Shown piece after piece: positions 8,236 to 55,907 of a stretch of 64,000 bases of DNA. Positions within the stretch are counted from its first letter, which is position 1. Each line of letters opens with the position of its first letter. The notes below the pieces were generated by a model that was not told where the DNA came from, did not search any database, and worked only from the letters and a program-made list of their open reading frames with translations. Origin of the DNA: a virus (lineage: Duplodnaviria > Heunggongvirae > Uroviricota > Caudoviricetes); the IMG/VR virus record IMGVR_UViG_2541047860_000002, one strand, 5' to 3'. Both the position numbers and the translations under genes were made by a program.

Positions 8236-8270
8236 AATTGTTAGATATTCAAAATTGATTTTCTAACACA
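8236..8270. promoter_or_regulatory. Divergent operator pair TTGTTAGA-N16-TCTAACA between ref and the early operon
   Basis: Inverted repeat 8239-8246 / 8263-8269 in the ref upstream region. Confidence 0.5.
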
Positions 8271-34154: not shown

Positions 34155-34617
34155 TTAATCAAGACAAACATACTCCGTGATAGCTTTTATGGCTTCAGCG
34201 GCACTGCGCGCCTCAAAGCAGTAGTAACCGGCTTCAGTGAGGCGGGTCATCCAGACGAGTTGTTCGGGAGTCAGGCGATTTCTCCCATGTTTCATCTCAA
34301 TGCGCATTCCGTGGTATCCCCCCACAAGCAAGGTCTATAGAAAGATCGGGATATCCCTTCTTTTGGCCCTCTGCCACCATTTTTATTGCCGTCCTTATGC
34401 CTCGCAGGCCACCGTTTGGAGTGGCGTGAGTATGCTCATACACATAACGCATATTGCGATACAACCAGTCCAGGACGCGAACCTGCTCGTAATGCTCATG
34501 GTTCCTTTTGATTAGATCTGGGTTTTTCTCCAGTTCTCTAAGAGCTGCGGCATGTGGGGATGTTTCAGAATATTCACTGCGACGCCTTCTCTTTCGCGCT
34601 ATTTTTCTAACACACAT
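34155..34617 (-). pseudogene. VRR-NUC domain nuclease gene interrupted by a frameshift at a C6 tract (34318-34323)
   Basis: N-part ...GYPDLSIDLACGG then, in the adjacent frame, YHGMRIEMKHGRNRLTPEQLVW... completes the PD..(I)E(M)K nuclease core. Confidence 0.6.
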
Positions 34618-34620
34618 ATT
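34604..34620 (-). promoter_or_regulatory. Operator-like motif (rc TGTGTGTTAGAAAA, copy h) overlapping the VRR-NUC start
   Basis: Overlaps ATG 34615-34617. Confidence 0.4.
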
Positions 34621-34786
34621 GATAGTAAATATGCGAAATAATAACAACAACGTTAGATTTATAAAACAAGAGAGATACTACTCAAGGATGGTCTATATGC
34701 AACAGGTCGGATTTGCTTTTAGAGTAAAGAGTGACCTTAATCAACAAGGAGGGTAAATCGCATGGCATTTACCCAACCTGTTATTT

Positions 34787-35047
34787 TTAAAGGGTTATTT
34801 TATCCTGTTCGGATAATTCTTTGATTGTCTTGTCGATTGCGATCAACCAACCTTCATAGGTTAAATCATCAACAAGTTCTACCAACTTATCATCGGTGTG
34901 AGGAAAGTATACCCAGCTCCAGTTCGCGGGGTTTTCTGCTTTTCGCAGCGTAAAAACCTTCTTGTATCGGTGGAACTCAAGGACATACCCCTTCGATATG
35001 GAATATTCCTTTAGGTCTTCGACCGTAAACCTACGATTCTTTCGCAT
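34787..35047 (-). CDS. Hypothetical protein downstream of darB
   Basis: 86-aa ORF. Confidence 0.4.
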   Translation of the reverse strand: MRKNRRFTVEDLKEYSISKGYVLEFHRYKKVFTLRKAENPANWSWVYFPHTDDKLVELVDDLTYEGWLIAIDKTIKELSEQDKITL

Positions 35048-42357: not shown

Positions 42358-42507
42358 AGGATTTCCCCCTCTAAACCGTAAAAATTCCGCTATGCGGTAC
42401 GGTTGAGAGGGTATGGAGAATGTTATTTTCAGGGGGACGATACTACCGTCAAAATCACATACTCCCCATAGTTTGCCTACTTATTAACCCATGACCGGGA
42501 GAAAAAT

Positions 42508-43226: not shown

Positions 43227-43930
43227 TCACCTCCCCAACCGATCACCTGGAATTGCCCCATTTTTGGGTGATACCAACGTTTTCCTCGGTGTTCAGCCTC
43301 CGACATCATCCGGTTAAAAGCATTCATGAAGGGAGATAAGGCGACGATGGAACGACGCGACAATACCCCCTCTGGAGTTAAAAACTCATGTGTATCTGTG
43401 GGAATCCGGTAAGCGTTGACAAGGTTGCGGCATTTGGCTTCGGTCAGGCCGCATTTCGCCGCCAGCTGGCGGTAGCCAATGTAACCTTCCGGCATGTTGC
43501 CCTTCTTGATTTGCTCGACGGTTTCTACCACCTGGCTAACCTTTGACTCAACAACATGAAGCCGCTTTTGCTGCTGAACTGCATTTGCAGCCATTGCGGC
43601 GATCATCTCTATTTCGGTCAACGGCTGGCGTACTTGTTCTTCCAGTTCGCGCCAGCGGTCCACCAGCCGGGCGGTGAATTCCGGAGAGAGCTGCGCAACG
43701 ACAATGATACTGTCACGCTTGCCTTGTTCGCCTTCGAAGACGTAGTGTGAATTTTTAACTTTAAATCCTAAGTTATTGATATTTTCGGAAACCTCCATTG
43801 GAGGAAGTGGAATAACACCTGATTTACTCAAGCGTTCAATAGTGCGTTTAACGTTATCCGGGCGACTTCCCACCAGCTCCGCGATCTCAATGCTGGTCAT
43901 TGATGGCTTTTCAAGAATGCAGATTTCCAT
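43223..43930 (-). CDS. Rha-family phage regulatory protein (antirepressor-like), copy 2
   Basis: Paralog of 5644-6585 over ~230 aa. Confidence 0.7.
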   Translation of the reverse strand: MEICILEKPSMTSIEIAELVGSRPDNVKRTIERLSKSGVIPLPPMEVSENINNLGFKVKNSHYVFEGEQGKRDSIIVVAQLSPEFTARLVDRWRELEEQVRQPLTEIEMIAAMAANAVQQQKRLHVVESKVSQVVETVEQIKKGNMPEGYIGYRQLAAKCGLTEAKCRNLVNAYRIPTDTHEFLTPEGVLSRRSIVALSPFMNAFNRMMSEAEHRGKRWYHPKMGQFQVIGWGGE

Positions 43931-44154: not shown

Positions 44155-44485
44155 AGTTACGGCCTCACTAACAGGTTTAACAACCTGCTACCCGCTGTCA
44201 AACAGGTGGCAGGACGTGACAGGGTTGACAGACTGGCGTTAGTGAAACCAGCAGGCCGAAGCCTCCCCATCACGCCCCACCATAATTCGGGCGTAACGCG
44301 GTTTACGGACACAAAAATACCGCAATATCGGAAATCTGCGGTTGTCCGCACTAACATTCAGGCTGTCAAACCTGGTCGCAGAATTTGCTACGACGGCATG
44401 AATATAAGCCTGAAAACATGGAAGATCAACTAAAAAATTTCAGCAATGGATGACTTCAGTCGATGATGCAGATCATACATTCCGA

Positions 44486-50339: not shown

Positions 50340-52282
50340 TAAACACCTCCCTGCTGAATTTCAGCCAGAATATTGATCAGGTAGTCAACTGCTGCACCCA
50401 CAGTGGCTTCGTTCTCGTCGTATCGACCTGCACTGATTAGAGCGTTTGCTGCTTCCTGCACATGATCAAGTTCAGCACTGATGACCGTCAGATCGCGGGA
50501 TGTAAACTGCTCCGGCACGGATTTCAGGTACTCCAGCGCTTTATCTGCTTCCTGATCAGCTTCACTTGCTGATTCACCCGCTTCTTCTGGCTCCGACTCC
50601 TGTTCTGGTGCTGGTTGTGGTTGTGGTTGTGGTTGTGGTTGTGATTCTGGCTCAACCACATGCTCTGTTTTTACTTCGCTTGAATGATTTTGAAGGGCGT
50701 TATACACGTCCATAATGAAAAGGTTCTCCCCATCACTAAGTGGATACGCCACGTTTGGAAACGCTTTGCGGAAAAGAATTTTCACTTGCGCCTTGAATGT
50801 TTTCAGGTCACTGCCAAACAGGTCCACATAGCCATCAATATGTTTCGACATGCTGGACGCAACCAATTGGCCTGCAAAATCTTTCAGCTCATCTTCATCA
50901 GGAAGATAAAGCAACTCGTACTGGCTGACTTCTTCATCTGTCAGTTTACGGTCATACGTAATGATACCGTGACGAGCATATTCGTAATACTGATCAGCCT
51001 GGTCAGGACGATCAAGCACGGCTTTATTTCCATCCGGAACAGCACCAACACCAGCTGGGCGAGATTGAAGTGCATAGTGGTATTTACCTACATCTTGGCT
51101 CTCTGGTTGTAATACTGGGTTCGTTTCGGGGTCTGTCTGTGGTGGCTCGGAGTCTTCCAACTGGCCTGGTAACACATCAACTTTATATTTATTTGCGTTA
51201 TGCTCTCGGTAGGCTTTAAGTAATTTGGTTGCAGCATCTGCCAAACTGCCTCCTTTGACAGCACTGGCATCAATACTGAATTTACCTTCAGGTGCTACTA
51301 TCGTAACGAAATTGTCACTGCCGGACGTGACATAATTAACTTCAGCGCCATTATCCAGCACTGTTTTTCCGTCAATGGCAAGATTATGTTTTACATGTCG
51401 CAGCTGGTCACTAAACGCTCGTTCTTTCGTTTTTTCACCTTTAGCAGACAACAATTTATCGCGTTTTGCTTGTAATTCCGCGTTGATGGCTTTCTGGGCA
51501 TCAAGTTTTTTTTGCATCTCCGTAAGAGCAGCACGCTTTTCAGTCAGCCCACGTTGCGCAACGTCCACCTGATCAATCATTATTGACCGTTCTTCTGCCA
51601 GTTTATCTGCTTCATTGAGATAACTCTCAATATCTGCCTTCATTTTGTCCTGGCGCTCTTTTGCTTTCTTAAATTTTTCGCTGTTACGCTCAATCAAATT
51701 AGATAGCGCCTGACATACTTGGCTTAAAGAAACATCTCTCCCACCAATCGGGGCGACAACGTGAGTTACGTTACGCTTATTAAGTAAAAACTGAAATGCA
51801 ACAAGCTCGTCGTTACTCTTTATTTTTGCCCCATCAGCTGTTGGAGAGTGGAAAATTATGCTTGTGCTCTGCCCGTCAGTAAGCGGTATCTGCGCGGTCA
51901 AAACAGGGATATTAGCTACCCGACGTACACGACCGATAATTGCACCACCAATACAATTACGTCCATTTTCATCGGTCCCAGCTTCATCAGTCCCTGCCAT
52001 AATATTCGTACCATTCAGGCCACGATTCAGCGCACGGACGAAAGCTCGCATTGTTTGAGCTAACCGAATTCTGGTTGTAGTTATGGACTCAAACATAGCT
52101 TCGTCAGACACAACCAGAATTTCATTGCCCATATAGGCAAGCTCAATATCTTCTAAGGTCGCCGCCTCAAAAATCAGGTCATCTTCGCTTAATTCTTCTG
52201 AAGACCAGCGACTTGGCATATAGCCGGGGATCGTATCAGCAAAAGTAGACTGAATATTAATTCGTAAAGGATTGTTAATCAT
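50339..52282 (-). CDS. Large coiled-coil protein with C-terminal PQ/acidic repeats (DarA-like by size and operon context)
   Basis: ~648 aa from ATG 52282 (GGAGG 6 nt upstream); follows holin-like genes as lydA-lydB-darA does in P1. Confidence 0.35.
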   Translation of the reverse strand: MINNPLRINIQSTFADTIPGYMPSRWSSEELSEDDLIFEAATLEDIELAYMGNEILVVSDEAMFESITTTRIRLAQTMRAFVRALNRGLNGTNIMAGTDEAGTDENGRNCIGGAIIGRVRRVANIPVLTAQIPLTDGQSTSIIFHSPTADGAKIKSNDELVAFQFLLNKRNVTHVVAPIGGRDVSLSQVCQALSNLIERNSEKFKKAKERQDKMKADIESYLNEADKLAEERSIMIDQVDVAQRGLTEKRAALTEMQKKLDAQKAINAELQAKRDKLLSAKGEKTKERAFSDQLRHVKHNLAIDGKTVLDNGAEVNYVTSGSDNFVTIVAPEGKFSIDASAVKGGSLADAATKLLKAYREHNANKYKVDVLPGQLEDSEPPQTDPETNPVLQPESQDVGKYHYALQSRPAGVGAVPDGNKAVLDRPDQADQYYEYARHGIITYDRKLTDEEVSQYELLYLPDEDELKDFAGQLVASSMSKHIDGYVDLFGSDLKTFKAQVKILFRKAFPNVAYPLSDGENLFIMDVYNALQNHSSEVKTEHVVEPESQPQPQPQPQPAPEQESEPEEAGESASEADQEADKALEYLKSVPEQFTSRDLTVISAELDHVQEAANALISAGRYDENEATVGAAVDYLINILAEIQQGGV

Positions 52283-53657: not shown

Positions 53658-53763
53658 ACCCCTCCAGAAATAACATCTAATGCGCCACTAACTTAGTCAG
53701 TTTGTTATTTCCTTACAGGACATCTTCTAAAATCTCCCCCCTTAACATACAAGGGGGGGACAT

Positions 53764-54371: not shown

Positions 54372-55907
54372 TTGAGCACGGCTAACACATGGAGTGCGCG
54401 CCAGACTTTCAACGGCGGGATCACCGGGGCGCTGACAGGGAACGCCGATACCGCGACGAAATTGAAAACAGCCAGAAACATTAATGGCGTCAGGTTCGAT
54501 GGTTCGGCTGACATTAATATCAATACTCTGGTATCACGCGGTCGAGTAACTGCTCTGGCGTCGAATGCGCAGGGGACATCCGGGATTCAGCTGTATGAGG
54601 CATACAACAATGGCTACCCTTCCCCCTATGGCAATGTGCTTCACCTTAAAGGTGCCACCGCTGCTGGCGAAGGTGAGTTATTCATTGGCTGGAGTGGCAC
54701 GAGCGGTGACCATGCGCCCGTACATATCCGTTCGCGGCGGGATACTGATTCTGCCAACTGGTCTGAATGGGCGCAGGTCTATACGTCAAAAGATTCCGTT
54801 CCCGGCGTTAATACCAAAGGGAATCAGGACACCTCTGGTAATGCGGCTACAGCGACCAAATTGCAGACAGCACGTACTATTAACGGTGTCTCGTTTGATG
54901 GTTCTAAAAACATTGAGCTAACAGCGGAAGATTTAAATCTTGAGCAAACCGTAGAATTAGCCGCTGGATCATTGCAGAAAAACCAGAACGGCGCAGATAT
55001 TCCAAACAAAGATAAATTTACGCAAACAATAGGTGCTTGCCGCTCTTTTCATGGTGCTATTAGCACAGGTGCAGGAAACTGGACGACGGCACAATTGATT
55101 GAATGGCTGGATTCTCAAGGGGCATTCAATCACCCATACTGGATGTGCAAATGTTCATGGTCATACGGCAATAATAAAATTATTACCGATACTGGCTGTG
55201 GAACTATTCATCTTGCAGGTTGCGTTATTGAGGTTATGGGTAATAAAGGTGCCATGACTATCCGTGTAACCACCCCGAGCACTTCCAGAGGTGGCGGAAC
55301 TACTAATGCACAATTTACTTATATAAACCATGGCGCAGATTACGCACCAGGCTGGCGGCGTGACTACAGTACCAAAAATCAGCAGCCTGCATTTGCTTTA
55401 GGGCAGACAGGAAGCACTGTTGGAAATGACAAAGCTGTTGGATGGAACTCAATTAGTGGCGTTTATAATGCGACTATTGGTGGAGCATCAACATTGATTC
55501 TTCACTTTAATATGAATGCGGGGAGTTGCCCTGCTGTACAGTTCCGTGTGAATTACAGGAACGGTGGTATTTTTTATCGTTCAGCGCGTGATGGTTACGG
55601 ATTCGAAGCTGACTGGTCAGAATTTTACACCACAACACGCAAGCCATCAGCAGGAGATGTTGGTGCATATACCAAAGCGGAGGCGGACTCCCGTTATGTA
55701 CGTGATATCCGACTTGGTGGCGCATCATCATACAAACCAGCAAATAATGGCACAACATGGACACATCAGGCTCCATCTGGTTGCGCATATACCGGAATAA
55801 TTGTTCAGGATACAGGCTCAAACTCTGCCGATAATATTGGTGGTGTTTATTACAGACCAATTCAAAAAAATATTAATGGCACATGGTATAACGTATCGAG
55901 TATTTGA
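54372..55907 (+). CDS. Tail-fibre cassette (middle repeats + variable C-terminus), no ATG start
   Basis: Two tail-fibre repeats GNA.TATKL.TAR.INGV.FDGS; frame open from 54294 without ATG. Confidence 0.65.
   Translation: MSTANTWSARQTFNGGITGALTGNADTATKLKTARNINGVRFDGSADININTLVSRGRVTALASNAQGTSGIQLYEAYNNGYPSPYGNVLHLKGATAAGEGELFIGWSGTSGDHAPVHIRSRRDTDSANWSEWAQVYTSKDSVPGVNTKGNQDTSGNAATATKLQTARTINGVSFDGSKNIELTAEDLNLEQTVELAAGSLQKNQNGADIPNKDKFTQTIGACRSFHGAISTGAGNWTTAQLIEWLDSQGAFNHPYWMCKCSWSYGNNKIITDTGCGTIHLAGCVIEVMGNKGAMTIRVTTPSTSRGGGTTNAQFTYINHGADYAPGWRRDYSTKNQQPAFALGQTGSTVGNDKAVGWNSISGVYNATIGGASTLILHFNMNAGSCPAVQFRVNYRNGGIFYRSARDGYGFEADWSEFYTTTRKPSAGDVGAYTKAEADSRYVRDIRLGGASSYKPANNGTTWTHQAPSGCAYTGIIVQDTGSNSADNIGGVYYRPIQKNINGTWYNVSSI

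Follow-up and report, generated by a model that had tools for sequence, protein, structure and literature searches.

A One-Base Expansion of a Short G Run Disrupts a pmgM-Like VRR-NUC Nuclease Gene in a D6-Like Plasmid Prophage

In the window (the whole stretch of 64,000 nucleotides analyzed here), a gene for a pmgM-like nuclease of the VRR-NUC family, part of the PD-(D/E)xK superfamily, was found to be disrupted by one additional G in a run that consists of five Gs in nearly all relatives. The interpretation that we favor, with a probability of approximately 0.78, is that this allele reflects recurrent, recent slippage knock-outs of a dispensable pmgM-like VRR-NUC gene, which occur as a minority allele. 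The sequence, distribution, and ancestry of the disrupted and intact alleles are presented below, together with other explanations for the frameshift.

Genomic Context of the Disrupted Gene

The region containing the gene was 98.9% identical to the genome of Escherichia phage D6, a plasmid prophage of the P1 family, and was matched by approximately 110 plasmids from E. coli, Salmonella, and Shigella in PLSDB. These results identified the window as a D6-like plasmid prophage of the P1 family. At the corresponding position, the D6 annotation lists one gene (orf12, D6_12), described as 'similar to P1 gene pmgM', and orthologs carry the PGAP name 'VRR-NUC domain-containing protein'. The gene order darB-ulx-orf13-pmgM-orf11-pmgR-pmgS is common to the window and D6. 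Based on sequence similarity and its conserved position within the P1 family, the window gene is regarded as the counterpart of P1 pmgM. A study on D6-like prophages in Salmonella ST213 did not mention this gene and reported no pseudogenes in pYU39_89 (PMC6799933).

Elsewhere in the window, comparison with two long relatives showed that, against one of them, a GGTTGT repeat within the darA-like head gene (position 50612) carries a 6-bp deletion. In addition, short patches at 43731–43830 and 55022–55224 (ant/rha-like gene, tail-fibre region) diverge strongly from the sequences of close relatives, in a mosaic pattern.

A Single Additional G Separates the Two Halves of the Gene

Six consecutive Cs on the plus strand (34318–34323) correspond to six Gs (G6) on the coding minus strand. 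Two overlapping minus-strand open reading frames, located at 34297–34650 and 34155–34331, flank this run. Its counterpart in nearly all relatives has five Gs (G5) and encodes Gly109-Gly110 (GGG GGA), so that the extra G causes a +1 shift. The proposal in the preliminary description, that these frames represent one VRR-NUC gene broken at the C6 tract, was borne out: removal of one G fused both frames into a single open reading frame. Read with G5, the whole gene extends over 34155–34650 on the minus strand, ends with a TAA stop codon at 34155–34157, and encodes 153 amino acids from an ATG at 34615–34617, or 163 or 164 amino acids from TTG codons at 34645–34650. In an alignment with D6 and other relatives, the difference between G6 and G5 was the only length difference in the gene, and relatives carried a single intact gene rather than two genes.

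Replication slippage would have added one G to GGG GGA, upon which translation would proceed through six wrong codons to a premature stop. In the window, the upstream frame reads ...GYPDLSIDLACGG, followed by IPRNAH and a TGA at 34297–34299. This frame specifies an N-terminal product of 106 amino acids from the ATG (34297–34617, minus strand), or of 117 amino acids from TTG. The downstream frame reads YHGMRIEMKHGRNRLTPEQLVW... up to the TAA at 34155–34157. Its C-terminal remnant (34155–34307, minus strand) comprises 50 amino acids from an ATG at 34305–34307, or 58 amino acids from a TTG at 34329–34331.

The codons for the Pro-Asp pair of the catalytic PD motif (CCC GAT, 34345–34350, minus strand) lie 5' of the frameshift. 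Those for Glu-Met-Lys of the catalytic ExK motif (GAG ATG AAA, 34290–34298, minus strand) are now out of frame, and the premature TGA overlaps the Glu codon of this motif. As a consequence of the frameshift, which parts E and PD from ExK and Q, the catalytic E...PD...ExK(+Q) residues do not occur in one polypeptide: the 106-amino-acid product retains Glu51 and Pro100-Asp101 and is without the ExK half of the active site, while the 50-amino-acid remnant contains the E-M-K codons and Gln129 and is without the E/PD half. The window thus carries a disrupted member of the VRR-NUC family. With Tyr111, His112, Gly113, Glu117, Lys119, and Gln129 lost and only Glu51 and Pro-Asp kept, the truncated product should be catalytically dead, and the downstream 50-amino-acid product is itself missing the Glu/Pro-Asp half of the site.

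The Intact Gene Encodes a VRR-NUC Protein With a Resolvase-Like Fold

When the frameshift was repaired by removal of one G, the resulting protein matched the Pfam VRR_NUC profile (PF08774) over residues 35–139 with a score of 26.4 bits, above the gathering cut-off of 23.8 bits. Neither fragment reached this cut-off; no match was found for the N-terminal fragment and the C-terminal fragment scored 17.5 bits against 23.8. The coordinates of the gene and the view that its joined frames form a complete VRR-NUC core, both part of the preliminary description, were correct. PHROG families matched by the repaired protein included PHROG 5702, 'Holliday junction resolvase' (4e-37), and the protein also matched the solved VRR-Nuc structure 4QBL (E 9.5e-14, 33% identity).

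An AlphaFold2 (AF2) model of an intact representative (P0001) had a mean pLDDT of 81 and a pTM of 0.73. Its best matches in the PDB were chains of 4QBL (E 2e-9, TM 0.77, rmsd 2.1 Å), followed by 4QBN, 4QBO, and FAN1. Across 43 homologs, E51, P100, D101, E117, K119, and Q129 were invariant. In the model, a hairpin that links the PD strand to the ExK strand contains Gly109-Gly110, and the frameshift splits the active site because the run lies between these two strands.

4QBL is a dimeric Holliday-junction resolvase with an E-PD-ExK-Q site (Pennell et al., 2014, PMC4103454). From the 33% sequence identity and the fold match, we infer that the intact pmgM-like protein is a nuclease of the Holliday-junction-resolvase type. 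It would act as a stand-alone E-PD-ExK VRR-NUC nuclease, as in its solved, dimeric relatives, and may trim branched DNA of the phage as it replicates lytically or is packaged.

The Sixth G Is a Genuine Allele

Homopolymer miscalls are the commonest source of apparent frameshifts, and a sequencing or assembly error in an element that truly has G5, and hence an intact gene, was among the readings offered in the preliminary description. The only G6 record among curated plasmids (CP042632.1) is clearly error-rich. Relative to D6, 35 kb of this record contained 32 isolated 1-bp indels, of which 28 were in homopolymers; half of its genes are unannotated, and darB, pacA/B, and c1 are absent from its annotation. 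The NCYU plasmid records L032/L003/L042 (CP042632.1) and L043 (CP042620.1, from the same study) are both error-rich, and their G6 calls are unreliable. In addition, three other homopolymers (42380, 44432, and 53753) differed in length between the window and four long relatives. The last of these (53753–53759) is intergenic, lies between the holin gene and cin, and is G7 in the window but G6 in the four long relatives.

A first view, in which curated sets were nearly all G5 and G6 was taken to be private to the window or erroneous, was overturned by look-ups of the exact protein product. The window's 106-amino-acid frameshift product was on record in three other assemblies, generated with different pipelines: GCA_907175305.1 and the Logan assemblies of SRR13156631 and ERR2138297. 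Clade-mates of the window carried G6, as did further NCBI and Logan contigs (L035–L038, L041, and L044–L047). The idea that the window derives from an assembly prone to homopolymer errors was likewise rejected: its allele at 42380 was shared with L014, and its A5 at 42380 and A6 at 44432 were both reproduced in GCA_907175305.1. Over 46 kb of the window, no other gene was broken, including the gene for the 2,278-amino-acid DarB, and no other homopolymer indel was found in coding sequence. Private single-nucleotide polymorphisms (SNPs) of the window occurred at approximately 1.3 per kb, and a few private indels are in proportion to this rate.

Because the exact product recurs, the independent assembly GCA_907175305.1 shares the other unusual homopolymer alleles, and no other gene is broken, G6 is concluded to be a real allele. 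An error at the run is accordingly considered very improbable.

Distribution of Intact and Disrupted Alleles

Alleles at the run were surveyed by megablast with a 34-mer probe for G6, designed so that any 28-nt seed includes the run, and a 33-mer probe for G5. The G5 probe matched 89 PLSDB plasmids and 76 complete E. coli replicons. The G6 probe matched none of the 76 in complete E. coli genomes and one of 90 in PLSDB (CP042632.1). A gapped pattern that allowed G4 to G8 matched 15 IMG/VR viral contigs and 8 metagenome contigs, all of which had G5; G4, G6, G7, and G8 were not found by this pattern in the IMG/VR and metagenome contigs. No match to the tract pattern was obtained in a scan of the genome-contigs collection. 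G4 was also not found in PLSDB, and none of G4, G7, and G8 was encountered among the fetched loci that were read. The absence of G7 rests on the gapped-pattern scans and these loci, since a 7-nt run would presumably be masked in the seed look-up.

The 50-amino-acid C-terminal product, which was used as a marker for disruption, had been called on 114 contigs. All ten places at which this product was read were disrupted copies of the gene. Seven were plain G6 alleles. The other three comprised six Gs combined with a T-to-C change just upstream (CP042620.1, L043), a G-to-T nonsense mutation inside the run that yields TGT GGG TGA (L040, GCA_032412665.1), and a 1-bp deletion in CCCGATC, approximately 20 nt upstream of the run (L039, GCA_045883065.1). 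A similar 1-bp deletion within CCCGATC, a Dam site, was observed in L010 (IMGVR_UViG_2778261184_000002). Broken copies were thus mostly G6, with one nonsense allele and one or two 1-bp-deletion alleles in addition.

Intact products were recorded on at least 1,729 contigs, as compared to 114 contigs with the disruption marker, which corresponds to approximately 6%; this is a rough figure, as contig counts are redundant (the same isolates occur in NCBI, ENA, and Logan) and clonal. A share of approximately 6% broken copies sits oddly with the single G6 record among 90 in PLSDB and none among 76 in complete E. coli genomes. No exact-product record was found for the 58-amino-acid, TTG-started C-terminal open reading frame, nor for the 116-amino-acid N-terminal products of G6 copies with the 'GG' haplotype. 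The latter products are unrecorded because gene callers skip them, and look-ups of N-terminal fragments are therefore unusable for counting.

Recent and Probably Recurrent Origin of the G6 Allele

Beyond the single additional base, no decay of the window's gene was detected, and the window differed by 0.2% from its closest relatives, the sole gap in the alignment being the run. Of the three readings in the preliminary description, that of a decaying gene came closest; with one base as the only lesion, the gene is better described as a recent knock-out allele. The window belongs to a clade marked by ATG at 34615–34617 (AT clade). Within this clade, no SNP separated L041 (G6) from L053 (G5) over 5.6 kb, and 9 SNPs separated the window from either. 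G6 also occurred on at least two haplotypes that were 1–3% diverged, outside the window's clade. For one of these backgrounds (L038/L045), the nearest G5 copy was 72 SNPs away and, for another (L044), 49 SNPs. Flanking markers of these backgrounds differed within 80–300 nt of the run.

The most parsimonious interpretation of these haplotypes is an independent origin of G6 on three backgrounds by recurrent slippage. Alternatively, G6 may have spread by recombination of a patch of less than approximately 370 bp, in line with the visibly mosaic structure of the population that carries the gene. The former interpretation would imply that the same +1 change arose on several backgrounds, as genuine and recent events. 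The run alleles that were found were only +1 and never –1, which is not obviously predicted by simple neutral slippage; the number of independent events is small.

Relative to homologs with 83% identity, the long-term dN/dS of the gene was 0.09, indicating strong long-term purifying selection on the intact gene. Broken alleles are therefore placed at short-lived tips, and we infer that they are neutral or transient in the populations that carry them, with long-term purifying selection eventually clearing them. P1 pmgM was found to be non-essential by CRISPRi (EOP 0.38) as well as by deletion (PMC10695390). Persistence of disrupted alleles at a few per cent may be explained by a gene that is dispensable for plaque formation and not needed during plasmid inheritance.

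An Unstable Start Region and a Putative Operator

The codon that serves as a canonical ATG start in the window (34615–34617, minus strand) was highly variable among relatives that are nearly identical in other respects. In related loci, the sampling of which was biased, this codon was GGG in 28, ATG in 13, GAG in 3, AGG in 2, GTG in 2, and TGG in 1, and position 34616 ranked within the top five of 5,642 alignment columns for variability. A canonical start codon results from ATG or GTG; with the other alleles, and hence in most copies, only the upstream TTG TTG (34645–34650) is available. A second polymorphism, A4 or A5 at 34602–34606 (T5 on the plus strand), affects the same region. The A4 allele, found in L006, L007, L018, and L020, introduces a stop codon into the TTG-started frame, and annotated gene lengths therefore vary (297, 309, 447, and 495 nt).

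In homologs with 70–83% identity, the basic N-terminal stretch is retained and preceded by a normal ATG or GTG, which indicates that the long form is real and that the short PGAP starts are probably wrong. The PGAP starts, which yield 98 or 102 amino acids, were rejected: P1 homology and the alignments with Pfam and 4QBL reach upstream as far as residues ~18–45 of the 153-amino-acid form, and the invariant E51 lies upstream of these starts.

An operator-like 12-mer (TTTTCTAACACA) is located at 34603–34614 on the plus strand and abuts the ATG. It represents the right half of a repeated motif, AAATTAR-WTTTCTAACAYA, for which 13 matches were found in the window as compared to 5.6 expected; none of 100 shuffled sequences reached 13. 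Copies were located at 8259, 11435, 21515(–), 22925(–), 32154, 32310, 33559, 34603, 44505, and 45703(–). These sites were promoter-proximal and intergenic. One precedes the c1 start by 19 nt; others lie before repL, in the repL–icd interval, ahead of pmgS, and elsewhere. The repeated motif probably represents the set of C1 operators of D6-type elements. For the copy at 34603–34614, the match is confined to the right half, as the left flank is GCGCTAT rather than the consensus AAATTAR; homologs with 83% identity preserve the core GTGTTAGAAA. An operator copy at the start codon had been noted in the preliminary description. Such a copy is indeed present, as a half-site, but it ends one base before the ATG and thus abuts rather than overlaps this codon, and ATG is a minority allele. 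In the window, the P1 consensus ATTGCTCTAATAAATTT had a single match with three mismatches where 0.32 were expected, a result not above chance level; as an operator probe it was uninformative, and an operator motif was instead derived from sequences repeated within the window.

Upstream of the operator-like motif, a sigma-70 promoter-like site (TTTATA, a 16-nt spacer, and TG-n-TATTAT; 34638–34665, minus strand) was identified by consensus match, with one site found and 2.0 expected in shuffled sequences. A terminator-like hairpin, identified by pattern match, follows the upstream orf13 (34787–35047) at 34751–34774 on the minus strand. These pattern matches suggest separate transcription of the nuclease gene from a regulated promoter and start site of its own, which may be controlled by the repressor.

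Slippage Without Support for an Evolved Switch

Recurrence of the same +1 change on at least three backgrounds raises the question whether the G run is an evolved contingency locus, that is, a reversible ON/OFF switch kept because it is useful to the phage-plasmid. The AT clade, in which G6 and G5 are interleaved among near-identical copies such as L041 and L053, could reflect forward and back switching; this interleaving gives no direction of change. Known contingency tracts are typically 7–8 nt or more in length. With only 5 nt in the ON state and 6 nt in the OFF state, the pmgM-like run is far below this usual length, and G4 and G7 were both missing from the scans and the loci read. Nor is the run conserved, as homologs with 75–83% identity encode the two glycines as GGC GGT or GGT GGT and P1 has GGT ATT. 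Irreversible lesions (one nonsense mutation and 1-bp deletions) occur in the gene as well, and G6 is rare in the complete-genome sets (1/90 and 0/76). An evolved switch is, against this background, highly unlikely. The slipped-strand phase variation suggested in the preliminary description is thus upheld as far as recurrent slippage is concerned, and unsupported as an evolved switch, given a short and unconserved run, the +1 state as its only variant, and the presence of other knock-outs.

Loss or reduction of the nuclease might instead be positively selected in the plasmid state, for instance if the lysogen paid a cost for leaky synthesis of an enzyme that cuts DNA junctions, especially for haplotypes with an ATG or GTG start. 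Such selection would be consistent with the occurrence of several independent types of knock-out within one 0.5-kb gene and with the unstable start region, with its six-allele codon and its frameshifting A4/A5 polymorphism. Moreover, 7 of the 16 disrupted places read had the ATG haplotype, while ATG/GTG-start copies accounted for 81 of at least 1,729 intact copies. This enrichment may, however, reflect a single event followed by clonal expansion, as contigs are not independent samples. A dN/dS of 0.09 shows long-term maintenance of the gene, and the knock-down and deletion of P1 pmgM demonstrate dispensability only. Positive selection for loss is therefore judged to be an unlikely, if not implausible, explanation.

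The G6 allele could also be a leaky hypomorph rather than a null allele, if ribosomes slipped +1 on GGG GGG A and thereby regenerated the wild-type ...CGGYHG.... The sequence TGT GGG GGG ATA would permit re-pairing of the P-site tRNA-Gly from GGG to GGG, and the next codon in the +1 frame, GGA, corresponds to the wild-type reading. Against this possibility, no stimulatory element was identified, be it a stop or hungry codon context, a Shine-Dalgarno-like stimulator, or a structure. Efficient +1 frameshift sites known to us differ from GGG GGG A. Appreciable read-through of this kind appears doubtful, and we give it little credence.

A more elaborate proposal is that, under fluctuating selection, the G5 run and the start region act together as a crude tuning device for nuclease expression. 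Copies with an ATG or GTG start would then be preferentially silenced by a change from G5 to G6 in the plasmid state and restored by the reverse change for lytic spread, thus forming a reversible, selected ON/OFF system. We regard such a system as a long shot.

Implications for Annotation and Phage-Plasmid Biology

Recurrent, recent slippage knock-out of a dispensable gene, the reading preferred here, has direct consequences for annotation. The two short open reading frames in the window should be annotated as one disrupted pmgM-like VRR-NUC gene. Likewise, the 50-amino-acid 'norphogenetic protein' and the 46-amino-acid 'hypothetical protein' in public databases are fragments or mis-starts of this same gene. 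The latter entry (P0074, 82 contigs) is annotated by RefSeq in, for example, L004 and L005 (NZ_CP066033.1 and NZ_CP061103.1), even though the 163-amino-acid open reading frame is intact in these sequences. The non-canonical start, rather than a disruption, seems to have given rise to this entry as an annotation artefact.

The case is an ordinary loss-of-function polymorphism of an already known, dispensable gene; it is mildly unusual only in that a run of 5 nt is hit repeatedly and that the start region is unstable. It illustrates how accessory lytic-cycle genes of phage-plasmids can be repeatedly lost at a short homopolymer despite strong long-term purifying selection, a pattern that fits elements that are mostly inherited as plasmids. 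If the knock-outs were selected or reversible, they would constitute a modest addition to phage-plasmid biology.

Comparison With Known Systems

Among the closest known counterparts is orf12 of phage D6, whose product is 99% identical to the repaired protein. For P1 PmgM (gp086, 'putative morphogenetic function'), identity is 57% across residues 18–152 (135 amino acids), and a basic N-terminal stretch and the same E-PD-ExK core are likewise present. P1 PmgM differs in being longer (192 amino acids) and in its codons GGT ATT at the position where the D6 type has GGG GGA, and P1 pmgM is intact whereas the window copy is frameshifted. The immediate neighbors of P1 pmgM also differ from those in the window, while the genome neighborhood in D6 is the same. 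In P1, pmgM follows pmgL; in the window, the gene is preceded by the unrelated orf13 and is apparently transcribed from a promoter of its own. Annotated C1 operators (O26/Op82 and Op83) lie on either side of the P1 pmgL-pmgM operon, which has, in addition, a late promoter. The putative operators in the window resemble P1 C1 operators in that an asymmetric motif is repeated at promoter-proximal sites; the core, TCTAACA in the window, is similar to TCTAATA in P1. The P1 consensus ATTGCTCTAATAAATTT as a whole differs from the window's AAATTAR-WTTTCTAACAYA.

With psNUC (4QBL), saNUC (4QBN), and stNUC (4QBO), homodimers of which cleave four-way junctions symmetrically (PMC4103454), the intact pmgM-like protein shares the PF08774 match, the fold, and conserved E-PD-ExK-Q residues. 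Unlike these enzymes, it has an extra basic N-terminal stretch of approximately 40 amino acids that is predicted to be disordered or of low confidence, and in the window's copy the domain is split between its PD and ExK halves.

Poly-G/C phase-variable loci of Neisseria, Haemophilus, and Campylobacter resemble the pmgM-like gene in that a one-unit frameshift within a G run silences a gene and recurs across backgrounds. In contrast to these loci, the pmgM-like run is only 5 nt long in the ON state, has a single OFF length, is not conserved, shows a low frequency of the OFF state, and occurs in a gene that is also inactivated by irreversible knock-outs.
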